Part shown: positions 41,327 through 58,533 of the stretch, in pieces
Layout: each line of letters begins with the position of its first letter
Numbering within the stretch: the stretch's first letter is position 1
Origin: Psilocybe cubensis
Taxonomy: Eukaryota
Length of the DNA: 64,000 bases
Direction: 5' to 3'
Assembly (NCBI GenBank): GCA_017499595.2
Contig: CM039008.1
Span: 1,178,001 to 1,242,000 of the forward strand
Position numbers and translations under genes: made by a program
Notes under the pieces: model-generated
Told to the model about the DNA's origin: nothing
What the model saw: the letters and a program-made list of their open reading frames with translations, nothing else
Database searches by the model: none

Positions 41327-43656
41327 TAGGGTCAAGATACTACATTGTAAATAGACACTTAATTGCCTTTAAAAATGTACATTTTATTGCTTGATATGAT
41401 TGAAGAGCTTTACTGAGACCAATCACATTGGACATCAAACTCTCCTAAGTCTGGAATTGTACATAGAGATAGCTAGGAAAATCCAAAGCTCGCAGTAGTA
41501 ATGTTGGAATGCTACAGAGCTCAACGGAGCATCCCGCCGATGACACATGACGCTATACTGTCTACAGCCCACTTTGATGCTACATCCGGTTGGCAGGACA
41601 ATACGTTGAGTTACCTCCAAAAATCCGGATTTACTGATGTAACAAAGTTCTTTTTCAGTACCGTACACGCCTCCTGATCAACAACGGCATATAGAATGTC
41701 ACAATGCAACTTCCGGTTATTTTTGTCAGTTCGGATGAATGGAAGACATCTGTTTCTTTAGCACGCAGTCCGACAGTCACAAGGGTGCTTTTTTCTGCTG
41801 TTTCACTCATTCACAGGGGATACTATTATCATTTGAATAGATGAGGCTTCATAGAAGAGTCAAATGCCAGCTCATGGATGTAGCATTCAATTTTCATCGA
41901 TCGCAATGATGTCGGTAGGCATAATTAATCACATAAAGCGTGTAGATGAGAGCTGATATAGATTATGACCTCGTCATCTCAATGAAAATGACCAGATGTT
42001 GTCTGTTGAAAAGAATAAACTTTAAGCGACGTTCAATTGCATCTGAGCATCCCTAATCATCTCTTCATTGTCACCTCTAGTCGAGTTACCACTTCAGCTC
42101 CTTACACACCGTTACAACAATGGCCAAACCTCCTCCACTAGTTGTCAGGTTGATTGGGATAGGAAAATACGAGTATTACCCTTTTCTTGACGCAAAAGGG
42201 GACACCAATGCCGACGACCTTTACAATTTCCTTAACAAGGAATACAAAGATGGCAGAGAATGCGACATAAAGGTGGTCAAAGATGCTACGAAAGAGGCGA
42301 TTCTGGCAGAGCTGAGATCCCTTCGGGAACCAGTCGATCGAACCAAGGGAATAGTCGTTTTCTTTTCTAGTTACGGAGGCAGCACGGGCGAAGGCACCTC
42401 GATAATATGTCCTACGGATATTGCAAGAACAGAGAAGAGTAAAGGTATCACCGACAAAGAGCTTACGCAGTTATTTGACTCAATTGCCAAGTTCCGCGGG
42501 AAAAATATTGTAAGTCGATTACACGAATCGCCGAGTCAAACGTTGAATAAAAATTGAATATAATCACGCAGACCTTTTTCCTGGATGCCCCTTCTTTGGC
42601 CTTTGATTGGGGATGGCCAAGTTCTTTTTTTTTTTTTTTTTTTTATTTTTTTTATTTTATGTTATAGCCTCTGAGGGGTGGGCCCCTCCCTTGGCTTAGT
42701 ACTACCATTACAGTTTCTCTATATAGGTTGTAATTCTACTGTTCCATGTGTACTGTGTAAAGGAATAAAAAGTGTTGCTTATGAGAGATTACTAACATTT
42801 ATTGCGGCGTGGTGTTTTCTGCGTGGGGTGCTAGAGTTGGAGTTGAAGGTTGAGGTTTCCTCTTCCGCTCCCGATATCGAGAGACTCGACACCAGGAGCC
42901 AAAGAGAAAAATGCCAGAGTGATAGAGCCGTTCTGTGATGTTCTTGTCTTCAAACCTAATGAGAATAGAAAGTCGGTCCTTCTGGAACTCCTCCCCATCG
43001 CGACAAAGAGCCCGTATTTGCCCTCGGATATCCTGCCTAGATACCCCTGCCTCGTTTTCAAGTAATGACCATATGCTGTTTTTTGGAGTGGCGGAGTCGA
43101 AAGAGTCGCGAAGTGAATCGGCTGGGAGATCATGGACCACTATACCATGCCATGGCACATCCGAGTGAACTGTGGGTGGGTCACCAATAGTTGAATCAAA
43201 ATTAGGAAAGCAATCGGAGGCCTGAGCTGCTTGAAGAATAGTCATCGGGCGAGCTTTTATTCTAGCAGTTCCAGTGTCGTTTGCAGTGTGGATAATGAGC
43301 CTTCCTGATTTTGAGACATTAGCTCCGAGAACATGACGAGGGGGGTCCCGTGACATTGGCGAGAGCTCGCTATTGAGTCGCTCCACAAAATCAGTGAGTG
43401 GACCAGATGGCTGTGTAAGTGGAAAGTCATCCCAGGATGCAATAAGGCGATTATTTGAGGAATAATGGCGGGTTGGACCGCTCCTTGATCCGCTACCACC
43501 ACCTTCAGCTGCTTTCCCACGCACTTAGAGCGCGAGAAAAGACTGCCAGGGGTTACAAGCAATCGAGTAGAGTATCTAAAACACAAAAACGTACCTAAAA
43601 GTACACAAAACACCCAATTCTCACAACAAAACACCCACGCCAACTTAATCTGTCAA

Positions 43657-46600
43657 ATGAATGTCAACACCGGCACAGCTCGTGCCAGGAAGACAACCTT
43701 GGGAAATCCGCCTACCCCGGGTCAAAACGACCAGGCCAACACTGAGAGATCATCGCGGAGCAAAGGAACGGTGGTCAACGAAGACCTCCAACAGGTCCAG
43801 GATGCCAAAGGAGGGAGATCCATACTCGAGGAACACCAACTCCTGGTGCCAGCGGGACAAGGTCTGACGGCACACCGGGCCGCCGCTTGCTTATTCCAGA
43901 TCTCGCAAATGTCGAACAAAACGCCGCCGATAGTGATACAAGCAATGCGAGGATTGGCCTTCCTACTAGAGGAAATGGAGATCCCGCTGGCAACGCAGAC
44001 TTATCACGACGGATTCGGAGAGGAACTGGCCACATTCACGAACGAAATCCGGTCGCTAGTACAACACGCGCAGGAGAAGGTGGACCAAAAACTCGAGGAG
44101 ATCAACAAAGCGACTGCCGATCTAGTCAAGACAGCCTCAACCGCGAAGCCTCAGCAAACCCTGAACCCAGGGGCGGCCTATAGTCAGGCACTCATGAAGG
44201 GTCTACCCACGCTCAGTCAAGTGATCGTCCAGTCCAACATAGCCACAAACCCAAGGCTGCTTGCTCGCCACGGCATACGAGCACGACAGACAATGTTGGA
44301 GGGCCTAGGTAAGGACTCCAAAATAAGCACGATGGGCGATCGCGAGGCAAAGGATCATATCAACAAAGTTCTGCAGATGCTGGAACCGGAAGGGACGGTG
44401 CGTATTCGTTCTGCAATCAAACAGAGAAACGGTGGGCTACTCATCGAATTTGACGCCGATTACGGAGCGGCGTGGATCAGGGTAGAGGAAAACCGCAGCA
44501 ACCTGTGCAAGGAGCTAGGCGAAGATGTCACCACTAGAAAGCGCACCTACGAGCTGATTGCAATGGGTGCGCCTCTGTCAGCCAAGCCTGAAGACGCAGA
44601 TTTCGTGAAAGAGACGGAGGAGGCCAACCGAGTCGAAGAAGGTACCATCGTCGCGATGCGATGGGCAAAGAAAGTATCGCGACGGGCGGTAGGTCAAAAA
44701 TGCGCTCACATCATTCTCACAGTAAACGACGCCTGCAAAGCGAACAGACTCATAGCCATGGGGATGTTTGTGGCAAACAAGCGAGTGAAAGTGCAGAAGT
44801 GCAAGACCGACCCGGTAAGATGTCTTAAATGCCAAGGCTATAACCACTTTGCAAAGGAATGTACGTCGAAACATGACATCTGCGGACATTGCGGCGAGAA
44901 GGGCGGCCACCGCACCCCGGACTGTGAAAAGACATCGACGCATTGCGTCTCCTGCGACTCGGACGATCACCCGAGCTACGACAGGGCCTGTCCAGTATTC
45001 CTGAAGAAGTCAGCAGAAAAGAACGATCGCACCCCCGAGAACAAACTCCCCTTTATCCCAACGGATGAGCCATGGACATGGAGCATGGACCCGAACGTGT
45101 CAGGGTTTCTCCAGTTTCCCCTCTTTATCTTCACAGAATTATCTTATCCTTTCATTATCTTATCAATTATCTGATTAGATAGTTTATTTCTTTCATCACA
45201 GCCTTCTTGCTCCACTTCTTTCTAGTAAATTCTATATGATTCCTAGTCTTACTCATCCTTTTTCTATATGATGTCACTTTTATTCTTTAACCTTCCTTTA
45301 TGATGTAATGTAGGGAATATTCTAGAATAGCTGTAGAGTATAAATACTGGACTTGTAGGTAGCTGTAGCTTCAGCTTCAATCTCTTAGGATATCCACTAT
45401 CATTGGTGTGATCTCTTAGAACCATTGAATCTCTCTCACTCTCTTATTCTCTCTTTGCTCTCTTACTCTCCCTCTGCTCTCTCTCTCTCTCTTGCTTAAT
45501 CTTTGTTGGTGGCCTTGTCACACTGATTATAGTGTTGCCCTGACAGAAGATTGAAGCTCTCTCAAGACAACTCCACCATCTCTCTTTCAACACCAAACTC
45601 TTCACCTCTTCAACCTCTTCAACATCATTACCTCAACCTTCTTCCTCCACTTCCAACCCACCAACCTCTTCATCAACCTCTCCACCAATCTTCTTACCAA
45701 TCTCTACATCTCCACCAATCTTCAACATCCTCCTCAAGACCTTTCCTCAAGACCTTTGGCTCATCATCTTTCCTACTCTCTGTTGTGTGCTGTGTGTGAA
45801 CTTAGTAGATAGGGATACCAACTGTTGGGGCAGACACAGTCCTACTAGTGTTCTGTTTTTGGTGGTCTAGGAAATATCCAGTAACCCTGTGATCCTAGGT
45901 TTAGAGCCCTGAGTGGTGTGACAACTGGGTATCCAGTAGATAGATATTTTTTTAGAATACTTAGTATAGTTTCAAGGGCACTTTCAGTAGATAGCTTCTC
46001 CCACACACACATCAGAGAGCCTACCTACCCCTACCCATGGACATGGACCCCTCCCAATTGCCTCCCACCACTCCTTCTGTGGAAGAGCTCATGCATCAGG
46101 TCCAGCTCCTTACCCAAGAGTTGAATTTTCTTAGACAGCAGCAGCAGTCATTATCCACTCCACCACACCCTCAGCAACCAGTCAGTCAGTCACCATTACC
46201 ACCACCACCACCACCACCTGCTGCTCTAGATATTCACTCTTTCCCTACCCCTCATGTTGCCCCTTCCTGTTCACACTCTGCCATTAAAGTCTCACCTCCA
46301 GATCCATTTGATGGTTCTATGGAGAAGGCAGAAAACTTCCTCAGTCAGCTTAAATTATATTTCTATGGGAAAGGGATTACAGATGACTTTCAGAAAGTTA
46401 TTTGTGCTCTATCTCATATGAAAGGAGGTACTGCTGGGAAGTGGGCATATGAGAAGACTAAAGTAATAGACAATGCTCAGTCCCAAGAAGGTCTTTGGGC
46501 TGACTTTGTTTATGAATTTAGGGAAGTGTTTGCAGATCCAGACCCCTCCAACACAGCTAAGCATAAAATGCATATGCTCAAGCAAGGCAGACAGACTGCT

Positions 46601-49600
46601 GATGAGTATGTTGCTAGCTTCAGGGCTCTGATCTCAGATACTGGGTATAATGATGCTGCTTTGGTAGACCAATTCAAGGCTGGGCTTAATGAAAATCTCA
46701 GGAATGCAGTCTACTATGTTCCTGACATGCCCAAAACCTTGGATGGATGGATTAAATGGAGTACTAGGCTAGATAGGCAGTGGAGACAGAGTGAGGCCTT
46801 TACCAAGTCTCTTTCCTCCTCCTCTTCTTCTCCCTTTCTTAAAGCCCCAACTCCCAAGGCTGTTCCTAAGCCTACTCCAAATCCTCCAGTCTTTTCCAAC
46901 AGCAGCTCAAGGACCTTTGGTGCTCAGGCAAAGCAACCAGATGTAGTTCCCATGGAGGTTGACTCTGGATGGAAGTCAGTTAGGCCAATTGTTTGCTTCA
47001 AGTGCAGAAAGCCTGGTCATAAGGCTGTAAACTGCAGGTCATCAGTTAACATCAATGCTATGACCCATGAAGAACTGGCTGACTACTTTGGGAAATTAAT
47101 CTTGGAAGGCAAGGAGCAGAAAGATGAGGAAAAGAAAAATTTTTAGAAGCACCATTGGTGAAAGACATGTCCCAATGGAATAGATTTAATGTACTAGAAA
47201 ATGAAATTGACAGACTTGATTCTCAGTCTTCAGATTCTGGTGCAGAAATCATGTCTTCTTCTTCCTCTCTTTCTACCTTCCCTGAAAAGATCTACATCCT
47301 CAACCATAATCCTAAAACCTCTACCCATTTGTCTGTCATCTTAAAGACAATGGACACAGAGAAAAGGTTATCTGTTGATGCTTTGCTTGATTCTGGAGCT
47401 ACTGGCCTCTTTCTGCATTCTGGTTTTGTGAAGTATCATAATCTCAACACAAGGAAACTTCCTAGGGCCATTCCAGTCTATAATGTTGATGGTACTCTCA
47501 ACAAGAGTGGCTCTATCCATGAGGAAGTAGACTTAATTATGGTACACAAAAACCATACAGAAAGGGCCACCTTTGCTGTTTGTGACTTGGGAGACAAATC
47601 TGCTATCATTGGACATACTTGGCTTTGGCACCATAATCCAGATGTTGATTGGAAGACAGGGGATGTCCAGTTTATTAGATGTCCCTCTGACTGCCAAATG
47701 GAAGCCAAAAGAGCCAGAAGAAAGAGGCAGAGAATAGCTGCAGTCAAAAGGAGGAAACTCCCTCAATTTGATGAAGAAGAAGATGATTCTATTGAAGATT
47801 CTTCTGATTCTGAGATTGAGCCTGAGGATAGAATTTTTATCTCATACCTTCATCCTCAGAAGCAGTCTATTAATGCTACTTCTACTATGTCTCAAAGATT
47901 AGCAGAAGAGTCTCATCAGCAAGCTGATTCCCCTAAGAAAACCTTTGAAGAAACTGTTCCTAAGCACTATCATCAGTTTAAAGGTGTTTTTTCAAAGGAA
48001 TCTTTTGATAGGCTACCAGACAGAAAGCCTTGGGATCATGCTATTGAGCTGAAACCTGGTTCTGAACCTTACAGATCCAAGATTTATCCTCTTTCTCCCA
48101 ATGAACAAAAGGAACTTGATGCCTTTTTAGAGGAAAATCTGAAGTCTGGCAGGATTAGACCCTCCAAGTCACCTATGGCCTCCCCTGTATTCTTTGTCAA
48201 GAAGAAGGATGGATCTCTTAGGCTTGTCCAGGACTATAGGAAACTGAATGAAATGACCATCAAGAACTCCTACCCCCTTCCATTGATTTCTGACATTATC
48301 ACCAAACTCAGCAAAGCCAAATACTTCACCAAACTTGATGTTAGGTGGGGATTTAACAATGTCAGAATCAAAAAAGGAGATGAATGGAAAGCAGCCTTTA
48401 GAACCAATAGAGGGCTGTTTGAACCATTGGTCATGTTCTTTGGTTTAACCAATAGTCCTGCTACCTTCCAAAATATGATGAATGATATCTTTATTGAGCT
48501 CATTGATGGAAATGTTGTCATTGTCTACATGGATGACATTTTAATTTTCACTGAGACTCTTGATCATCATAGAGAGGTAGTCAAGCAAGTTCTGCAAATC
48601 TTAGAACAGAACAAACTCTACCTTAAAGCAGAGAAATGTGAATTTGAAAAGGAAAAGATTGAATATCTTGGACTAATCATTTCACAAGGCAGGATTGAGA
48701 TGGATCCTGTCAAGGTAGAGGGAGTTTCTAAATGGCCTGAACCTGAAAATGTCAAGGATGTCCAATCATTCTTGGGATTTGTTAATTTTTATAGAAGGTT
48801 CATAGAGGATTTTGCAGACATTGCTAAGCCCCTTCATGAATTGACAAAGAAAGGAACAGTCTGGAGATGGAGTCTTAGACAACAGGAAGCCTTTGACCAG
48901 TTAAAGAAGAAAGTCACTTCTTCACCTGTCTTGATTTTCCCTGATGATAACAAGCCATATAAAGTTGAAGCAGACAGTTCAGATTATGCTACTGGGGCTG
49001 TTTTATCTCAGGAAGGATCAGATGGGAAATGGCATCCTGTAGCCTTTATGTCTAAGAGTCTATCTGAAGTAGAAAGGAATTATGAGATCCATGACAAAGA
49101 GATGCTGGCTATTATCAGAGCACTAGATGAATGGAGACATTATCTTGAAGGAACCCAACATTCCTTTGAGATTTGGACAGACCACAAAAACTTAGAGTAC
49201 TTTATGGTTGCCCAAAAGCTCAGCAGAAGGCAAGCCAGATGGTCACTCTTCCTGTCCAGATTTGATTTTACTCTTCATCATAGGCCTGGTAAAAGATCTC
49301 TTAAGCCAGATGCTTTGTCTAGGAGACCAGATCATAAAAAGGGAGAGGATGATAACCAAAATGTAGTTCTCCTCAAACCTTCCTACTTTAAAATCCAGGC
49401 TCTCAAGCAGGGTCATGCTACCATTACTGGTGCAGAAAATGATCTTCTTAAGAAGATTAGAGAAGCTAAGGAGATGGATGAAAAGGTGGTCAAGGCAGTT
49501 CAGGAGCTCAAGAAATCTTCTACCAAGAAGATTGAAGGACAGGAATGGTCAGAAGAACAAGGCCTTATTCTCTACAGGGGGAAGGTGTATGTTCCCAAGG

Positions 49601-51641
49601 ACAAAGATCTTAGAAGAAAGATTGTGGAACTGCACCATGATGCCTTCATTGCTGGACATCCAGGGAAATGGAAGACAATTGAGCTAGTCTCTAGGAATTA
49701 TTGGTGGCCAGGAATGTCACATTTTATTGCAGCCTATACCAGAGGTTGTGATAGATGCAACAGAACCAAAACCTTTCCAGCCAAACCTCTTGGCCTTTTA
49801 ATTCCTACTGAGATTCCCTCTGATGTCTGGCAATGCATCTCTGTGGACTTTATTATGGGGTTACCAGAATGTCAAGGGTATAATGCCATTATGGTGGTTG
49901 TGGATAGACTTAGTAAAATGATCCACATTATCCCTACTACAGATGAAGTCACTTCTGAAGGGACAGCCAGACTATACAGAGATTATGTCTGGAAACACCA
50001 TGGCTTACCCATTAAAATTCTGTGTGATAGAGGTCCACAGTTTGTCTCAAGGTTTATGAAAGAACTCAACTCAATACTTGGTATCCAGACAGCCTCATCT
50101 ACAGCCTACCATCCCCAAACTGATGGTCAGACTGAAAGAGTTAACCAAGAAATTGAGCAGTATCTTAGACTCTTTATAAACCATAGACAAGATGATTGGG
50201 TTGAATGGTTAGCTCTAGCTGAATTCTCTTATAACAATAGAGTTCAGGCTTCAACCAGGCAGACACCATTTATGCTCAATAATGGCAGACATCCCAGAAT
50301 GGGCACTGAACCCCTCAGAGATAGTAAAATGGACACTGTGGATACCTTTGTGAAAAATATGGAAGAAGCCAGGATAGAAGCAGAGTCTGCACTTAGAAAA
50401 GCTGCTGATGATATGGCTAAATTCTATAATAGACACAGAGGTACTCCAACTCAGTACAAAGTTGGGGATTTGGTATGGTTGGATGGCAAGGACCTCAAAA
50501 CTGATAGGCCCTCCAAGAAATTGGATGATAAAAGATATGGGCCTTACAAAATTACCAAAGTTATTAGCCCTAATGCCTATGAGCTTAAGCTGCCATCTAC
50601 CATGAAAATCCATCCAGTGTTCAATGTGGTTAAACTTCTACCTTATCACCCAGATATTGTAGGAAGAAAGCCTCCTTCTAGACCACCACCTGTCATTCAA
50701 GGAGAAAGTCCTGAGTGGGAAGTTGAATTTATCAAGGACAGCAGACTTTTTAGAAACAAACTTCAATATTTGGTCAAGTGGAAGAACTATCCTAATGAAG
50801 AATGCACTTGGGAGCCTGCAGAGCATTTGAAAAATGCTTCTAAGGCTATCAAGGACTTCCATGCCAAACATCCTTCAGCACCTAGAAGGATTTCTGCTGT
50901 GACCTTTGATAGACTTTCTTTCACTCCTATTATTAACTTTACTGAACCTCCTCCTCTTCTTAAACCCTCTAAACTAACCCATCCATGTGCACATTGTGGA
51001 AAATGTGCCTTAGAGAGGGGGTGATGTCAGGGTTTCTCCAGTTTCCCCTCTTTATCTTCACAGAATTATCTTATCCTTTCATTATCTTATCAATTATCTG
51101 ATTAGATAGTTTATTTCTTTCATCACAGCCTTCTTGCTCCACTTCTTTCTAGTAAATTCTATATGATTCCTAGTCTTACTCATCCTTTTTCTATATGATG
51201 TCACTTTTATTCTTTAACCTTCCTTTATGATGTAATGTAGGGAATATTCTAGAATAGCTGTAGAGTATAAATACTGGACTTGTAGGTAGCTGTAGCTTCA
51301 GCTTCAATCTCTTAGGATATCCACTATCATTGGTGTGATCTCTTAGAACCATTGAATCTCTCTCACTCTCTTATTCTCTCTTTGCTCTCTTACTCTCCCT
51401 CTGCTCTCTCTCTCTCTCTTGCTTAATCTTTGTTGGTGGCCTTGTCACACTGATTATAGTGTTGCCCTGACAGAACGACGCCCCAACAACTTTCAAAAGA
51501 AAGGAGTTCGCGAGGGGACAATCACCCCGATGGACCGTGGAACCGCCCACAACATCGAGGAAGGACCTCCCCAAGACGCCGCAACAGAGCCCAGAACCAG
51601 AGCAAATGGGAAAGGAAGGAGGCTCAGCGGGTGATATCTAA
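43657..51641 (+). CDS. LINE ORF1 (gag-like, three CCHC knuckles); coding parts 43657-45097 and 51478-51641, split by the LTR element
   Basis: RCLKCQGYNHFAKEC, CGHCGEKGGHRTPDC, CVSCDSDDHPSYDRAC; frame restored when the Gypsy element and one TSD copy are removed. Confidence 0.9.
45098..45545 (+). repeat. 5' LTR (TATA box at 45339)
   Basis: Direct repeat of 51025-51472; no difference seen by eye. Confidence 0.97.
46037..47146 (+). CDS. Gypsy Gag (capsid plus CCHC knuckle)
   Basis: PDPFDGS, LKQGRQTADEYVASF, VPMEVD, CFKCRKPGHKAVNC. Confidence 0.95.
   Translation: MDMDPSQLPPTTPSVEELMHQVQLLTQELNFLRQQQQSLSTPPHPQQPVSQSPLPPPPPPPAALDIHSFPTPHVAPSCSHSAIKVSPPDPFDGSMEKAENFLSQLKLYFYGKGITDDFQKVICALSHMKGGTAGKWAYEKTKVIDNAQSQEGLWADFVYEFREVFADPDPSNTAKHKMHMLKQGRQTADEYVASFRALISDTGYNDAALVDQFKAGLNENLRNAVYYVPDMPKTLDGWIKWSTRLDRQWRQSEAFTKSLSSSSSSPFLKAPTPKAVPKPTPNPPVFSNSSSRTFGAQAKQPDVVPMEVDSGWKSVRPIVCFKCRKPGHKAVNCRSSVNINAMTHEELADYFGKLILEGKEQKDEEKKNF
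47155..51024 (+). CDS. Gypsy Pol (protease, RT, RNase H, integrase, chromodomain); -1 frame relative to gag
   Basis: LLDSGAT, YMDD, EADSSDYATGAVL, HH-CC zinc motif, CDRGPQF, DGQTER, GPY module, WEVEFIKDSR..YLVKWKNY..TWEP chromodomain. Confidence 0.97.
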   Translation: MVKDMSQWNRFNVLENEIDRLDSQSSDSGAEIMSSSSSLSTFPEKIYILNHNPKTSTHLSVILKTMDTEKRLSVDALLDSGATGLFLHSGFVKYHNLNTRKLPRAIPVYNVDGTLNKSGSIHEEVDLIMVHKNHTERATFAVCDLGDKSAIIGHTWLWHHNPDVDWKTGDVQFIRCPSDCQMEAKRARRKRQRIAAVKRRKLPQFDEEEDDSIEDSSDSEIEPEDRIFISYLHPQKQSINATSTMSQRLAEESHQQADSPKKTFEETVPKHYHQFKGVFSKESFDRLPDRKPWDHAIELKPGSEPYRSKIYPLSPNEQKELDAFLEENLKSGRIRPSKSPMASPVFFVKKKDGSLRLVQDYRKLNEMTIKNSYPLPLISDIITKLSKAKYFTKLDVRWGFNNVRIKKGDEWKAAFRTNRGLFEPLVMFFGLTNSPATFQNMMNDIFIELIDGNVVIVYMDDILIFTETLDHHREVVKQVLQILEQNKLYLKAEKCEFEKEKIEYLGLIISQGRIEMDPVKVEGVSKWPEPENVKDVQSFLGFVNFYRRFIEDFADIAKPLHELTKKGTVWRWSLRQQEAFDQLKKKVTSSPVLIFPDDNKPYKVEADSSDYATGAVLSQEGSDGKWHPVAFMSKSLSEVERNYEIHDKEMLAIIRALDEWRHYLEGTQHSFEIWTDHKNLEYFMVAQKLSRRQARWSLFLSRFDFTLHHRPGKRSLKPDALSRRPDHKKGEDDNQNVVLLKPSYFKIQALKQGHATITGAENDLLKKIREAKEMDEKVVKAVQELKKSSTKKIEGQEWSEEQGLILYRGKVYVPKDKDLRRKIVELHHDAFIAGHPGKWKTIELVSRNYWWPGMSHFIAAYTRGCDRCNRTKTFPAKPLGLLIPTEIPSDVWQCISVDFIMGLPECQGYNAIMVVVDRLSKMIHIIPTTDEVTSEGTARLYRDYVWKHHGLPIKILCDRGPQFVSRFMKELNSILGIQTASSTAYHPQTDGQTERVNQEIEQYLRLFINHRQDDWVEWLALAEFSYNNRVQASTRQTPFMLNNGRHPRMGTEPLRDSKMDTVDTFVKNMEEARIEAESALRKAADDMAKFYNRHRGTPTQYKVGDLVWLDGKDLKTDRPSKKLDDKRYGPYKITKVISPNAYELKLPSTMKIHPVFNVVKLLPYHPDIVGRKPPSRPPPVIQGESPEWEVEFIKDSRLFRNKLQYLVKWKNYPNEECTWEPAEHLKNASKAIKDFHAKHPSAPRRISAVTFDRLSFTPIINFTEPPPLLKPSKLTHPCAHCGKCALERG
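51025..51472 (+). repeat. 3' LTR
   Basis: Direct repeat of 45098-45545. Confidence 0.97.
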
Positions 51642-51646
51642 ATCAG

Positions 51647-54600
51647 ATGAGTGACATACCCACCTCAGAGCAGAGTACCGCCCAAATCAGACTGCTGCAG
51701 ATAAATCTCAACAAATCAGAAGTGGCACACCTCGAGACACTCAACGACAATCTACACGACCGATTCGACATTGTTCTCCTACAAGAACCGCATATCACCC
51801 ACTTCAAAAACATACGCACCAACAACAATTTCCGGCCGGTGTATCCGTCAAATAGACATATGTCGACAACACGCTCTGGCATCTGGGTCAACAAAAGGCT
51901 CGATACCAACAACTGGAGTGAAATCACTTTCCCCGAGTCCAACGACATCACAGCAATACGGATTCGATGCGAAAGAGGTAATGTCTACATTTTCAACATC
52001 TACAATCCGGGACACGAGGGCAGCGCAATCCGACAACTCCAGAAATACCTGCTGGACAATCAAGAAGCAATAACAAATGACAACACACACATGATATGGG
52101 CCGGCGACTTCAACCTTTACCACCCGATGTGGGACCGTGACGAGGACACCCGCCTCTTCACAAGGACTGCACTGGCAGATGCCGAAAAGCTGATCGAGCT
52201 GCTCGACCACCACGACATGCACATGCCACTGCCCAAAGGCCATCCAACTCTGGAACACATGGTCTCGAAACGCCTCTCACGCCCCGACAACGTCTTCTGC
52301 TCCTCAAGCTTAACACCCTACGTCATCCGTTGCGAAGTGCTCTATGAGGCAAGGCCAGCCAACACTGACCATTACCCCATCGTCACCACGTTAGACACGA
52401 ACTACACGAAGATCGATGAAGCCATGACCAGAAACTTCAAGCTAGTTAATTGGGACAAGTTTAACTCAGCACTGAGGACGCGTCTACAACGTGAACAGCA
52501 ACCTAGGGCGTTGACAACCAAGGAAGAAATAGAGGATACGGTGAGAGTACTGACCTCGGCCTTGCAGGATACCATAGCAAGCGAGGTCAAACTACGAAAG
52601 CCGCTTCCAGACAAGAAAAGATGGTGGACAGGTGATGTAGAAACTGCCAAACGATACAAGAACAGACTGAGCAGCCTTCACAATAGGTACCGAGCAATGC
52701 CAGACCATCCATGCCACCAGGAATACAAGGCCGCCAAACGAGCATTCGCAAGACTGGTCATCGAGGCAAAGAAGAACCACTGGGAGGACTGGCTGCTCGA
52801 CGCCGAAGGCGGGGACATCTGGACGGCAAACCGGTACTTTAAGAACCCAGCCGGCGACGGCGGCCGACCGCGCATACCCTCGCTTCACGTTACAAATGAG
52901 TACGACGAAACGGAGGAAGTTACCACCAATGAGGAGAAAGCGCAAGTATTTGCGAGAGCGTTCTTCCCCAAAAAACCGGATCAGTCCTCAGTACCAGCAA
53001 ACTACCAGTACCCTGAAGCTCTGCCAGACTTGGGTAAAGTAACGAGGAGTCAAATAACCAGGCAGATCCGCCGGCTGGCACCACACAAAGCACCAGGAAT
53101 GGACGAAATCCCAAACATAGTATTGCAAAAGACCGCCCCAATCATAGCCGATCACCTCGTCTGCCTATACAATGCAATACTTGACCTGAATTACTACCCG
53201 GACTCATGGAAGCACTCCATCACGGTCGTGCTGCGCAAGCCCGGAAAGCCTAACTACAAGATGGCGAAGGCATACCGCCCGATTGCCCTGCTGAACACCC
53301 TCCCGAAGGTCCTGACGGCAATAATAGCAGAGCGGTTAAGCTATTTAACAGAAACTCACAAATTACTTCCAGACACACACTTCGGAGGGAGACCAGGGCG
53401 TACAACATCGGACGCCATGCACTATCTTACAGACAAGGTCAAGTCAGCGTGGAGAAGAGGTAAAGTAGCATCAATACTCTTCCTGGATGTTGAAGGCGCC
53501 TTCCCGAACGCAGTCACGGACCGGCTTATCCACAATCTGAGGAAACGCCGAATACCAAAGAAATACATCGATTTCATCGAGAATCTACTCAAAGGGAGGA
53601 AAACAAAACTGAGATTCGACGACTTCGTATCGGCGTTAATGGAAATTGACAATGGAATTGGACAAGGTGACCCACTTTCAATGATTTTGTATATAATCTA
53701 TAACGCAGATCTGCTCGAAATTGTCAACCGAGAGGATGGCGAGGACGCGATAGGCTACGTGGATGATGTCACGATCATTGCAACGGGCGACACCACTGAC
53801 GACACAACCGACAAACTAAGTATCATAATGAATGATGAAGGCGGTGCACAAACATGGAGCGAAGAACACAACTCCAACTTCGAAGTATCAAAACTTGCAA
53901 TAATGCATATGGACCCTCGTGATCCGGACACACTTGAACACCCCAGGCTGGAGGTAAAAGGCGAACTAGTCAAACAGGTGAACAACTTTCGTTGTCTTGG
54001 GTTTCAGATTGACTGCCGTTTGCAATGGAAGGTACACCTCCAAAAAGCGACAGAAAAAGCCACCAGTTGGCTATCAAACTTCCGAAGACTGTCAAAACCG
54101 AGCACCGGAATCCAATCAAAACTCATGCGGCAACTCTACATCACGACCATTATCCCTCAACTATCATATGGAATCGACGTATGGTACACCCCACCCACAA
54201 AACCCACCGGCTTCCGGCGAAACACAGGATCTGTTGCAGCCCTGCGGCAGATGACCATGATACAAAGAAAAGCCACGCTCATCATCACGGGCGCAATGAG
54301 AACCACCCCGACAGAATTGCTGGACGCCCATGCAGGTGTCCTGCCACTCGAGCTCACGCTGCTGAAAATATGTCACAGGGCAATAACGAGATTGTGCACA
54401 CTGCCGCCGACACACCCGTTACACAACACAGTGCGAAAGGCATCAACAAAACAACAACGTCGACACAAATCTCCGATATATCAACTCCTCAGGATTTTCG
54501 ACTTGAGACCGGACGAACTAGAAACCATACACCCGTACACAACATCGCCGGAATACACACCGCCCTTCAAAATCGTAATCGCAAAGTGCCGGGAGGAATC

Positions 54601-55600
54601 AATAAAAATTGAGACGAAATGCCTAGCTAAGTACCGAATATACTCAGATGGCTCAGGTCATGACGGTCGAATAGGTGCCGCGGCGGTACTGCTAAAAACA
54701 CGCAAGGATCGGCATGGAACCACATTACGACTACACCTCGGAACTAAAGAGGAGCACAACACCTATGAAGCGGAAGGCGTGGGCGGAATACTTGCACTCG
54801 AACTAGCCAAGAAGGAGAACCCAGAGGAAAACGATGAGATTGCAGTATTCAGCGACAACCAGTCCATGCTGCAGAATGCCAGCACACCCAAAGCTAAGTC
54901 GGGCCAGCACATTGCATTAAAGCTGATTGATGCAGCGAGGGAAATACAGGGGAGAGTTACACTCTACTGGATCTCCGGCCACTCAGACGTACTGGGCAAT
55001 GAACGAGCAGACGAAGAGGCCAAGAGAGCAGCGGATGGCGACAGTAGCCCGATAGACACCTTGCCCGAGTCACTGCAACACGCTCTGCCAAAGAGCGCAT
55101 CAGCAGAACGTCAAGCGTACCACGAAGAGCTAATGACCATATGGACATCGCGTTGGAACGAATCCCGACGAAAAATCACCTTCAAAAACAAGAAAATCGA
55201 TTCAAGCTTCCCATTCACGAAGTTCAGGAAAACCGCACATAAGCTAAATAGAGCACAAGCCAGTGTCCTAATCCAACTGCGAACGGGGCACATTCCTTTG
55301 AACTCACATATCAGCAAGTTCGACCCACACTTCAACCAATTCTGCCCAAGATGCAACGAGAGACGATCGGGCGAGAGGGCCACGGAGACCGTAGAACACT
55401 TCCTGTTCGAATGCAGAGCACACAAAGAGCTACGACAGGACATGTGGACCAAACTAGGGAAGAAAATCATGAACATAGAAGAACTCACGACGAATGTCAC
55501 GAACGCAAGAGCATTAATCAAATATATCGCGAGGACGAAGCGACTAAAACCGTACAAAGAAGACATACTCGTTAGAGGAATACAAGAAATGGAAGAGTAA
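51647..55600 (+). CDS. LINE ORF2: APE endonuclease, reverse transcriptase, RNase H, C-terminal zinc motif; intact 1317 aa
   Basis: LQINLN, LLQEP, GDFNL, TDHYPI; YRPIALL, QGDPLS, YVDD; IYSDGSG, WISGHSDVLGNERADEEAK; CPRC..ETVEHFLFEC. Confidence 0.97.
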   Translation: MSDIPTSEQSTAQIRLLQINLNKSEVAHLETLNDNLHDRFDIVLLQEPHITHFKNIRTNNNFRPVYPSNRHMSTTRSGIWVNKRLDTNNWSEITFPESNDITAIRIRCERGNVYIFNIYNPGHEGSAIRQLQKYLLDNQEAITNDNTHMIWAGDFNLYHPMWDRDEDTRLFTRTALADAEKLIELLDHHDMHMPLPKGHPTLEHMVSKRLSRPDNVFCSSSLTPYVIRCEVLYEARPANTDHYPIVTTLDTNYTKIDEAMTRNFKLVNWDKFNSALRTRLQREQQPRALTTKEEIEDTVRVLTSALQDTIASEVKLRKPLPDKKRWWTGDVETAKRYKNRLSSLHNRYRAMPDHPCHQEYKAAKRAFARLVIEAKKNHWEDWLLDAEGGDIWTANRYFKNPAGDGGRPRIPSLHVTNEYDETEEVTTNEEKAQVFARAFFPKKPDQSSVPANYQYPEALPDLGKVTRSQITRQIRRLAPHKAPGMDEIPNIVLQKTAPIIADHLVCLYNAILDLNYYPDSWKHSITVVLRKPGKPNYKMAKAYRPIALLNTLPKVLTAIIAERLSYLTETHKLLPDTHFGGRPGRTTSDAMHYLTDKVKSAWRRGKVASILFLDVEGAFPNAVTDRLIHNLRKRRIPKKYIDFIENLLKGRKTKLRFDDFVSALMEIDNGIGQGDPLSMILYIIYNADLLEIVNREDGEDAIGYVDDVTIIATGDTTDDTTDKLSIIMNDEGGAQTWSEEHNSNFEVSKLAIMHMDPRDPDTLEHPRLEVKGELVKQVNNFRCLGFQIDCRLQWKVHLQKATEKATSWLSNFRRLSKPSTGIQSKLMRQLYITTIIPQLSYGIDVWYTPPTKPTGFRRNTGSVAALRQMTMIQRKATLIITGAMRTTPTELLDAHAGVLPLELTLLKICHRAITRLCTLPPTHPLHNTVRKASTKQQRRHKSPIYQLLRIFDLRPDELETIHPYTTSPEYTPPFKIVIAKCREESIKIETKCLAKYRIYSDGSGHDGRIGAAAVLLKTRKDRHGTTLRLHLGTKEEHNTYEAEGVGGILALELAKKENPEENDEIAVFSDNQSMLQNASTPKAKSGQHIALKLIDAAREIQGRVTLYWISGHSDVLGNERADEEAKRAADGDSSPIDTLPESLQHALPKSASAERQAYHEELMTIWTSRWNESRRKITFKNKKIDSSFPFTKFRKTAHKLNRAQASVLIQLRTGHIPLNSHISKFDPHFNQFCPRCNERRSGERATETVEHFLFECRAHKELRQDMWTKLGKKIMNIEELTTNVTNARALIKYIARTKRLKPYKEDILVRGIQEMEE

Positions 55601-55880
55601 GCGAAGGGATCAGAATGCACAAAAGTCGCCAAGGAAAGGCGCACCACAGGGACAACAAAGAGAGGAGTAGAGGAAGCGCGAAGGGAGACTCTGCCTACAA
55701 AGAGGCGCCAGAGGCGCTACTCAAAACGGCCTAGGAAAGGCCGGATCCAGCAAGGGGACGTGAGGGCCCCTTGGGATGCTTGAGTAGGTCGAAGACGGCA
55801 ATCTCACAGCGACAGGAGCTGTTAGGTAGAATAAGTAGCACAAGGCCAAAGGAGGGGCCCTCCCCTTAGAGGCAATAACA

Positions 55881-55921
<41 letters not shown>

Positions 55922-58533
55922 GGGTTGGACGAGTGACGTGAGGGCGGGTCTTAACAGGGCCTCCAGCAATTGGGGCTGGGGATGTCCTCTGCGGCGTGTG
56001 AGCTGGCTGAGCCACTGGTGTAGTTTTGGCCACCGTAGCGTATGACCGGGGCTCAGTAACCCTTTCAGGGTTTTGGGGGTGATATTCCGGGTCTGCCGGG
56101 AATAAGGTTGAGTGTAGCAGCAGAGCGGCGTGCATCGTTCGGTCACTGAGTGTGACGGTACCGTGAGAAATGCTCTGTATAATCGCGACCGTTGCCAGAA
56201 TGGAGTCCAGCAGAGTCTCGAGGTGAGCAACCTGTCCGGCAACAATGTCCGAAGACACAGCTGGCGGGGGCAGAGTAGATGGGGGTGCAGCATCGGTGTT
56301 TGGGGCACTGTGTGGGTCCGCCAATGGTATGGGTGTGTTGACAGAGTGCTGTGGAGAGGGACCCGGAGGGGCATCCACTGATTTCCGAGGGTGAGTTCTG
56401 CCTTTCTTTATAAGGCGCTTCGTATGGGGTGACCTCTTGGTCTGTAGCAGCTTTCGGCCATCACTCTCTGACTCTGTTGGGCCTGGGGTTGAGTCTGGAG
56501 AGCGCTGTCGCCGTGTACCCAGCAGCGGGGCCGGTGAGCTGGCACGCTGACCATGTTGATGGTGGTGGTTAGTGCGTGAGAACATCATGGCCAAGTTCAT
56601 TCGTCGTTGTTGCACCTCAGCAAATTCCGTCCAATCGCAAAGCATTCACCACTGCTGTCATTGATGCTTTACGCTCAGAGAAGGAATCGATATCAACGCT
56701 CACTGTGAAATCGTTCGCTGCAAAGATACACAGTTTTATGTGCGTCACAATATATCACATAATTTCAATGTATTTATGATCAGGTTTTTGCTCATGCAGG
56801 CCCAATGGAATAGAAATTGATTGCCACGGACAGAATTCTGACCGCCTTCTATTCAATCCAGCAGGAGGATGGGCCCACCCTGCCTTCATAGCAGGCAGAG
56901 TCGAAGAAAGCAGAAGAAAGCCGACGAAACGACTTAATAAGCGTAACCATCTTTGCTGGAGCCGCACACGGTATAGAAAATGGGACGACATTTAACGTCT
57001 ATGCAAATCATGTCGACACGAACCAGAAACCCATTGGCCATCTCGAGGTTGTTGACAGATACCATCCCGTTATTAACTCCACCACGACTAAGCTAGAACT
57101 TCCTCTCGACACAAAATTACCTGTAGTATTTTTTGTCGTGGAGACAGGTTCCTTATCTCGAGCTTTGAATGTCTACGCTGATAAGGTGGCTATGTCGATG
57201 GTCAAGGGTCCAAGGTTGAACATGGTCAACGAATCTATGGCGCATATTATTCTCAGGAATGCCAACGACAAAGTCGAGGTCTTGTGGAATGACTTTCCAA
57301 AAAGTGGCCTCGATTCAGGGAAGAATCTCGTTCATAATATCGCTGTATTGAACAACCCTGCGGATTTGGAAAAGGCACTCAGTAATGCTGCATGGTTTAC
57401 TCACCGTGTCAGTTATATGCGCAACCCGATGTCTTCGTGTGCATTCTTCGAGGCAGAATTGAAGGCGGTCGATGAAAATCAGGAACCGACTGGAAAGAAT
57501 TTGTTACTCGATGACGCCGTCACCCTGGATATCACTCAGGACAACAATAGAACTACTTACTGCCTCTTGCTTTCAAACAAAACCGATCACGAAATCTGGC
57601 CGTACGTGTTCATTTGTAACCCAAGCGATTTTAGCATCCGTGGGTAATTCTGGAATGTCTGATTTATTATACCTTGCTGATAAATGCTATATTAGGTCCT
57701 TGGTATACCGCGACGAAGGCTTTATCTCCAAAAATGATGGGAGCAACGAACACAGTTGAAATTGGATGCGGAGATGAGGATGATCTGGCATTCGAATGGA
57801 CTGCGGACCAGGGAGTAGATGTGGCATATATCAATATTATTGCTACAAAGGAACGTACCAACTTTTCTTGCTTGACGCAAAGCGAAACTACAACCGTCGA
57901 GAGACTCAGAGGTATGTTCTGCCTAATCAAATTGCTGGCACACAGACTAAGGTATTTTATCCAGAAGTAGCCCCAAATCAATCGATTTCGACGCAGGCAA
58001 ACGAGGAACCACGCAAGCGTCGTGGTATGTCAATCAAAAAGGACTGGGAGATGGCGCAAATTCCAATCACACGAAAATATGTTCAGAGAACGAGTCGTAC
58101 TGTTTCTCCATCAGCATCGAGGAAACCTTTCTGGAATAAGTTTGGCAAATAGGTTGTACAAGATAGCATTTTATACCAGCCTATTTTCCGCACTAATCAG
58201 CATAAACTCTGTTTTTTGAACATCTTGCGTTTGGTTTGATGAAAGAGTCAGACTTGAAAGCTTTCCAATGAAGAAGATAGAATCATTGAAAAGAATCCGA
58301 GATGCTCAAGTCATCCTAGAAGTGCCAGTAAGCGGTGAACGGGAAGCAAGGGAATACCTGTAGACATTGTTACATATCGCTAATTCGACGTGACGAAGTC
58401 CGGGGCGACACGGATTTTACCGATGAACTGTACAGATAACAAATGCCGTTTTCGGCACGCAAACCTTGATTTGGCCCTGTGACCTTTGGTTACGGGCAAG
58501 TTTCGCTCGACATCCTCAAGACTATCCTCAAAA

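Follow-up and report, generated by a model that had tools for sequence, protein, structure and literature searches.

The stretch of DNA analysed here (the window: 64,000 nucleotides (nt) of Psilocybe cubensis, GenBank assembly GCA_017499595.2, contig CM039008.1, positions 1,178,001 to 1,242,000 of the forward strand) contains three nested insertions: an element whose single open reading frame (ORF) resembles ORF1 of long interspersed nuclear elements (LINEs), referred to below as the ORF1-only element; a LINE lodged in it; and a Gypsy element lodged in the LINE. The ORF1-only element occupies 42625..56586 on the minus strand, between two copies of a 12-bp target-site duplication (TSD), ATGGCCAAGTTC, one adjoining its poly(A) end (42613..42624) and the other, an exact repeat, at its 5' end (56587..56598). 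It splits a plus-strand host ORF (42120-42624 and 56587-57206) that encodes a caspase-like Peptidase_C14 domain (Pfam, E 1.3e-5). The LINE, on the plus strand at 43479..55916, has a TSD of its own on either side, ATGGCGGGTTGGAC, at 43465..43478 (a stretch that is also part of the outer ORF) and 55917..55930. The Gypsy/chromovirus long terminal repeat (LTR) element, also on the plus strand, lies inside the LINE ORF1 at 45098..51472 with the TSD GAACG; its LTRs (45098-45545 and 51025-51472) are identical at 448/448 positions, and one contig of sequencing run X8 carries the LINE without it.

When the LINE is removed, 42625-43478 joins to 55931-56586, giving an ORF1-only element of 1510 nt that contains a single 444-aa open frame. 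It consists, in order, of one extra G, an ATG-initiated frame running from nt 2 of the joined element to a stop codon at 42799-42801, a 3' untranslated region (UTR) of ~135 nt, and an A-rich tail (42625..42659, minus strand, as are all its parts). The N-terminal part of the ORF (55931..56585; aa 1-218 and the first base of codon 219, whose other two bases lie at 43477-43478) is basic and mostly disordered, and the C-terminal part (42799..43478; aa 219-444 and the stop) comprises a tandem RNA recognition motif (RRM) and a basic C-terminal tail. We are confident that the two pieces are correctly joined since the annotated protein P0143 (hypothetical protein JR316_0007746 [Psilocybe cubensis]), also of 444 aa, differs from the joined ORF at 1/444 residues, and since a second family protein, P0001, is collinear across the join. 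Pfam searches with both halves of the ORF gave nothing above threshold and hence neither a reverse transcriptase (RT) nor an endonuclease; a DUF2103 match (E 0.025) fell below the Pfam threshold and was discarded. Rfam at gathering thresholds gave no match anywhere in the window, with no tRNA, 5S or 7SL and no ribozyme or small-RNA head at either end of the element. The description given in the first-pass annotation, that of a ~1.5-kb element with a TSD, a poly(A) tail and a single 444-aa ORF but no RT or endonuclease, is therefore accurate. An A-tail and a 12-bp TSD are found in the window copy and in two complete relatives from metagenomes (L007 and L012, see below), in line with non-LTR retroposons that integrate by target-primed reverse transcription, which have A-tails and TSDs of variable length and lack terminal repeats.

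The element is present in many copies. We counted the raw DNA reads of run X14 at a likeness of at least 85% and summed the depths. The single-copy flanks had a depth of ~24 (1x), both halves of the ORF1-only element ~267 (~11x), the LINE ORF2 ~20 over seven bins (~0.8x) and the Gypsy element ~1200-1760 (50-70x), that is, about 11 copies of the ORF1-only element, about one of the LINE and roughly 50-70 of the Gypsy element. Uninterrupted copies, which the first-pass annotation had proposed to look for, do exist. Run X5, which looks like RNA data and has zero depth over the Gypsy element, yielded a 2804-nt contig (depth 128) in which 42671-43476 is joined directly to 55929-56571. Four contigs of run X8 end their match exactly at 56586, the 5' end of the element, and continue into unlike flanks, and the two annotated P. 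cubensis proteins of the family, P0143 and P0001, lie on two different contigs. The host-gene contig of run X5 skips 63 and 60 nt, one of these segments having GT..AG ends; in this spliced contig of 815 nt, no more than 42 letters separate the two host flanks. As it thus displays an empty site, the insertion in the caspase-like gene is polymorphic among strains. The read depth, the unlike flanks, the empty site and the two protein-bearing contigs agree in placing copies of the element at different sites.

Relatives of the element are widespread and share its layout. The C-terminal half of the ORF, used as a protein query, retrieved 105 cluster representatives at E<=1e-3; many family proteins are 415-445 aa long, start with MFSRxNHHH and end soon after a CRVSxY motif. 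The named relatives come from P. cubensis (the two contigs above), Cyclocybe aegerita, Flammula alnicola and Mycena galericulata, and all are annotated as hypothetical. A metagenome scan gave 22 related loci at 34-53% protein identity, none of which (0/22) had any match to ORF2 or ORF1 of the LINE by tblastn. An A-run of at least 10 begins 233-381 nt after the stop codon in 11/22 loci. A covariance model of the 3' tail described below (R1, built from 13 tails) located that tail on the correct strand downstream of the ORF in seven loci outside the training set, two of them merely as cut-off matches with E 0.13. With these two weak matches included, the tail motif is present in 18/18 metagenome loci with enough downstream DNA; in the remaining 4/22, where no tail was found, the sequence ends 19-252 nt after the stop. 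Two loci are complete, L007 with 1634 nt and L012 with 1656 nt between the ATG and the last base of the A-tail, and flanked by 12-bp TSDs that end 1 nt and 5 nt before the ATG, respectively; the candidate TSDs of L001 and L009, of 5-6 nt, are unconvincing. The length of the element within the family is thus ~1.5-1.7 kb, and the lineage appears, from these comparisons, to be old and Agaricales-wide. In the window, R1 found the two known tails and nothing else. A blastn match to the element's A-tail corresponds to an A/T run at 21285-21315, where the model sees no stem-loop.

The nested LINE is an autonomous-type element with two ORFs. With the Gypsy element removed, its ORF1 (43657-45097 and 51478-51641, plus strand) encodes 533 aa with three Cys/His knuckles, and its ORF2 (51647-55600, plus strand) encodes 1317 aa with Exo_endo_phos (the apurinic/apyrimidinic endonuclease (APE) type), RVT_1 and RNase_H domains (Pfam); the A-tail lies at 55882-55916. 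Because the LINE inserted after the ORF1-only element and the LTRs of the Gypsy element within it are identical, the LINE appears to have been active in the same recent period as the outer element.

We compared the outer ORF with ORF1 of this LINE at the levels of sequence, profile and predicted fold. BLASTP detected no similarity (best E 0.45), the two being only ~13% identical, and a CCHC knuckle (loose pattern C-x2-C-x3-8-H-x3-8-C) was found in 0/116 family proteins, as opposed to 2-3 knuckles in 35/37 relatives of the LINE ORF1. Profile comparison by hhalign, on the other hand, aligned the family with the LINE ORF1 over 200 columns (probability 97.4%, E 1.2e-11); the aligned region starts at an SYA motif common to both and stops one residue short of the first knuckle of the LINE ORF1. 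Two profiles were needed to reach this level, the family profile giving just 71.7% against the single LINE ORF1 sequence. The AlphaFold2 model of the C-terminal region (39 sequences; predicted local distance difference test (pLDDT) 91.1) is a tandem RRM, whose best Foldseek matches are tandem-RRM proteins (IMP3 RRM12, HuR, U2AF65; 26 matches at E<=1e-3). The N-terminal half was modelled at low confidence (pLDDT 56.5) with two helices only, and is predicted to be disordered save for a long conserved helix at aa 112-139. The ESM Atlas was uninformative, with only unnamed clusters at 0.90-0.91. By profile and predicted fold, then, the outer ORF is a remote homologue of the LINE ORF1, as unlike it in sequence and as devoid of CCHC knuckles as had been claimed, and related to it through the RRM region that the first-pass annotation had singled out for comparison. 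The ORF is also kept by selection: 8/9 full-length metagenome ORFs are intact, and the dN/dS values of 0.25-0.31 obtained for the six pairs free of saturation show that the selection is purifying. The members of the family therefore combine an ORF with remote homology to LINE ORF1, no RT or endonuclease, and a tail or an A-run within ~400 nt of the ORF, as expected of ORF1-only LINE derivatives.

These data bear on the simplest account of the locus, namely that the window copy is a two-ORF LINE that lost its ORF2 by a one-off internal deletion. Nothing beyond the layout of this single copy speaks for such an event, to which we give next to no credence. Multiple copies exist, with conservation at both the 5' and the 3' end, relatives at 32-53% protein identity still have the ORF-only layout, and the ORF is only ~13% identical to the LINE ORF1. 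The read depth, P0143, the complete relatives with TSDs and the tails in further loci refute it.

The ORF1-only element and the LINE share their 3' end. The last 46 nt of the element before its A-rich tail (42660..42705, minus strand) are identical to 55835..55880 (plus strand) of the LINE at 39/46 positions, and both segments end at the A-tail. Upstream of them, including the rest of the element's 3' UTR (42706..42798), identity drops to 1-4/10 in each 10-nt block, which is the chance level, so that this part of the UTR is unrelated to that of the LINE. The local alignment of the tails scores 48, compared with 15.9 +/- 2.2 (maximum 29) in shuffled sequences, and 0/2000 shuffles reach this score. 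In folding, the two tails give one and the same two-helix hairpin, GAGGGG-CCCW-CCCCUY inside GCC..GGC, followed by a poly(A)-signal-like motif, AUAA(C/A)A. The extent of the tail match and the shared hairpin are thus exactly as first reported.

The folding energies of the two single tails are not unusual (z -1.1 and -0.6), and the case for a conserved structure therefore rests on covariation. In an alignment of 13 tails, the helix positions pair in 87% of the cells as compared to 75% after shuffling, and the covariation score is 0.437 as compared to 0.197; 0/500 shuffles reach either value. Control registers obtained by sliding the helices pair at no more than 56%, and 5/9 helix pairs show changes on both sides. 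A 20-row alignment fitted to the model gave a similar picture, albeit one biased towards the model. The covariance analysis that had been suggested at the outset thus supports the structure. Three tail types can be recognized by the outer helix (GCC/GGC, GUC/GAC and UCUC/GAGA) and appear to follow the ORF clades; the LINE tail is of the first type. In the tails of L006, L016, L018, L019 and L022, a UUCG loop closes the inner helix and the outer helix is UCUC/GAGA. Among 19 family tails, that of the co-resident element is the closest to the LINE tail (37/44), followed by those of L001-L003, the nearest ORF clade to the co-resident element (29-32 of 44-45), the rest being at most 55% identical.

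The 5' end of the element, a feature outside the first-pass annotation, is conserved as well. Homology starts at the ATG in 10/10 elements, with unrelated DNA upstream. Identity among these 10 elements is 94% over the first 27 nt, despite saturation of the synonymous sites elsewhere, and 28% over the 27 nt that precede them. In the window copy, this 5' terminus (56559..56586) comprises the extra G, then the ATG with its 27 nucleotide-conserved bases, and contains a 9-mer, ACCACCACC, at +17-25 (56561-56569). The same 9-mer stands at nt 17-25 of the LINE (43495..43503, plus strand), where it belongs to the UTR; it occurs at just six distinct loci in the window. With its ATG at nt 2, the ORF1-only element has practically no 5' UTR, and the bases between TSD and ATG (G in the window copy; A and GGGGA in the two others) look like untemplated additions. 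We interpret the ACCACCACC box as a putative internal promoter or 5' signal shared by the two elements, and the RNA of the ORF1-only element as effectively leaderless. The first ~56 nt of the LINE (43477-43532) also occur in contigs with unlike upstream flanks, four in run X8 and one of depth 177 in the RNA-like run X5, which suggests a 5' module common to several elements.

Such defined ends are difficult to reconcile with a second alternative, in which the family consists of retrogenes or processed pseudogenes of a host gene, once domesticated from a LINE ORF1 and passively copied by any LINE. The annotation of the family proteins as 'hypothetical protein' and the intact ORFs under purifying selection would fit this scheme. 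However, a 5' end fixed at the ATG in every element aligned, a tail motif at every locus with sufficient downstream DNA, and a tail in common with a LINE would not be expected of it; nor would three complete elements with TSDs in different lineages, or some 11 copies of an element whose present insertion site is polymorphic. Processed pseudogenes, moreover, typically have random 5' ends and decay, whereas 8/9 of the full-length metagenome ORFs are intact. No intron-bearing parent gene was seen, although no genome-wide search for a parent was made. As the ORF is a remote LINE ORF1 homologue and retroposon ends are found on every copy seen, we regard a host-gene origin as very improbable.

We consider it likely that the element in the window is a member of a non-autonomous poly(A) retroposon family that has long persisted in multiple copies in the Agaricales, with a tail-matched LINE as its helper. 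For its spread the element probably relies on the copying enzyme encoded by a LINE with a matching 3' end signal, and from the shared tail we infer mobilisation in trans by the LINE ORF2 protein. According to this model, an internal promoter in the first ~27 nt would drive transcription, the RNA starting at the AUG or 1 nt before it, and the element's own ORF1-like protein would coat this RNA in cis. The ORF2 protein of the tail-matched LINE would then recognise the stem-loop together with the A-tail, and the RNA would be copied into the nicked target by target-primed reverse transcription, giving rise to TSDs of 10-15 bp. At the present locus, the element entered an exon of the Peptidase_C14 gene first, before being hit by the LINE, itself later hit by the Gypsy element.

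Several observations weigh against this model, and some of them favor another version of it, in which the ORF1-only family is the same but its helper is not the nested LINE. In that version, either the RT is provided by another LINE subfamily, or the stem-loop serves polyadenylation or packaging by the ORF1 protein and the A-tail alone recruits the RT. The matching of partners relies on one LINE tail (n=1), the two tails differ at 7/46 positions, and the putative link from the LINE ORF2 protein to the element is drawn from sequence comparison. Three contigs of run X1 carry the tail of the outer element followed by a different, LINE-3'UTR-like sequence (by eye); therefore, the true partner may be another LINE subfamily. 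The hairpin lies ~5 nt upstream of the poly(A)-signal-like motif, and this position just before the signal means that it could function in 3'-end formation or in packaging by the element's own protein rather than in recognition by the RT. The LINE is present at about one copy, the window copy has its ORF1 broken by the Gypsy element, and the RNA-like run X5 gives the LINE no coverage at all, the ORF1-only element being abundant there. The 2804-nt contig of that run, moreover, departs from the element 15 nt inside the 5' end and continues for 1346 nt; it may stem from read-through into a defective copy, and shows abundance of the RNA rather than activity of the element's own promoter. An RNA beginning at its AUG would have no ordinary route of translation. 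Finally, the template modelling (TM) scores of the Foldseek matches are low (0.23-0.34), which is due to an orientation of the two RRMs unlike that in solved proteins.

Other findings argue for the nested LINE nevertheless. The 46-nt tail is the only segment shared, the rest of the UTR being unrelated and the ORF very remote; the tail nearest to that of the LINE, among the 19 family tails compared, belongs to its genome-mate; and the LINE was apparently active in the same recent period as the element. We therefore deem a helper other than this LINE, or recruitment by the A-tail alone, unlikely, and retain the tail-matched LINE as the candidate helper.

We also put forward, tentatively, a more far-reaching proposal. 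The ancient, Agaricales-wide ORF1-only lineage could be an obligate LINE parasite that keeps its own RNA-binding protein while mimicking both ends of its helper, the 3' stem-loop being read by the RT and the 5' ACCACCACC box at +17-25 acting as a promoter or recognition signal, and its capped RNA could start at the AUG as a leaderless mRNA. This remains doubtful in our eyes; a leaderless mRNA, if confirmed, would represent an unusual translation route for a fungus.

Comparison with known systems helps to place the family. HAL1 of mammals, to which the element had been likened from the start, is described in PMC5753468 as a non-autonomous LINE derivative that encodes ORF1p only and for which a LINE supplies ORF2p. 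The likeness holds at the level of function, as both are ORF1-only and would depend on a LINE for ORF2p (a dependence that is conjectural for the fungal element); it does not extend to recent descent as a half of the co-resident LINE, since the fungal ORF belongs to an old, independent lineage. HAL1 is a direct derivative of L1 that has originated several times, whereas the fungal ORF is just a remote homologue of the co-resident LINE ORF1. The HAL1 ORF1 is of the L1 type (coiled coil, RRM and C-terminal domain), whereas the fungal ORF is of the RRM type without CCHC; moreover, unlike HAL1, the fungal element shares just the 46 nt of the 3' end with the LINE. It is not a HAL1 proper of the L1 clade: no Pfam family, L1 ORF1 included, matches its ORF, and the candidate helper is an APE-RT-RNase H LINE with a CCHC-type ORF1.

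TRE5-A.2 of Dictyostelium discoideum, as presented in PMC5391098, has ORF1 and the 3' module but no part of ORF2; the ORF2 protein that mobilises it in trans comes from TRE5-A.1. It arose by simple deletion from this helper, whose ORF1 and ends are identical to its own, and targets tRNA genes, whereas the fungal family has a diverged ORF and UTRs of its own. The telomeres of Drosophila carry ORF1-only retrotransposons of the HeT-A type. Such elements are reported to depend on the ORF2 of other families and to be able to spawn new ORF1-only lineages (bioRxiv 10.1101/2025.06.09.658640). They belong to the Jockey clade and are confined to telomere arrays, whereas the fungal element occurs at dispersed sites, such as the gene exon in the window, and is flanked by TSDs. 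It may thus work like HAL1, TRE5-A.2 and the Drosophila elements, by analogy, while belonging to none of them by descent.

In having only the 3' tail in common with its putative helper, the element resembles short interspersed nuclear elements (SINEs), whose tails, according to PMC5786205, derive from LINE 3' regions and are the part that is recognised. Unlike SINEs, which are short and non-coding and whose small-RNA-derived head carries an internal pol III promoter, it is 1.5 kb long, has a 444-aa ORF under purifying selection and has no small-RNA-derived head that Rfam could find. As to the protein, PMC4120745 defines the type I LINE ORF1p, found in the I, Jockey, R1, Tad1, plant L1 and L2 clades, by one or more RRMs directly upstream of a CCHC knuckle. 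The tandem RRM core of the fungal protein and its profile homology to a co-resident LINE ORF1 of that type fit this description; the knuckle, absent from all family members, is replaced by a short basic tail after the second RRM. By the definition given there, the fungal ORF is a type I ORF1 core without the defining knuckle. A full-text literature search, with most subscription journals and Repbase entries outside its coverage, found no fungal ORF1-only LINE parasite.

Two further observations concern the insertion sites and the neighbourhood. By eye, both nested poly(A) insertions seem to have been primed at a nick at T^ATTC on the primed strand (42624/42625, ..AAGTTC^ATTCG; 55916/55917, ..GCCATT^ATTCC), which is consistent with a single endonuclease specificity but, with n=2, anecdotal. 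The segment 41500-41640 belongs to another repeat, with ~7x the single-copy read depth and many loose ends at 41639-41641.

ORF1-only LINE parasites are already documented in mammals, in Dictyostelium and at Drosophila telomeres. What the mushroom family would add is a compact natural system, 1.5 kb long with a single gene and a short conserved segment at either end, suited to asking what the RT of a fungal LINE recognises, why a parasite retains an ORF1 protein of its own, and how transcription and translation work for an RNA whose start codon stands at its very 5' end. There are practical consequences as well: annotations of mushroom genomes currently list members of the family among the host genes, and in one strain a caspase-like gene is interrupted by the copy described here.

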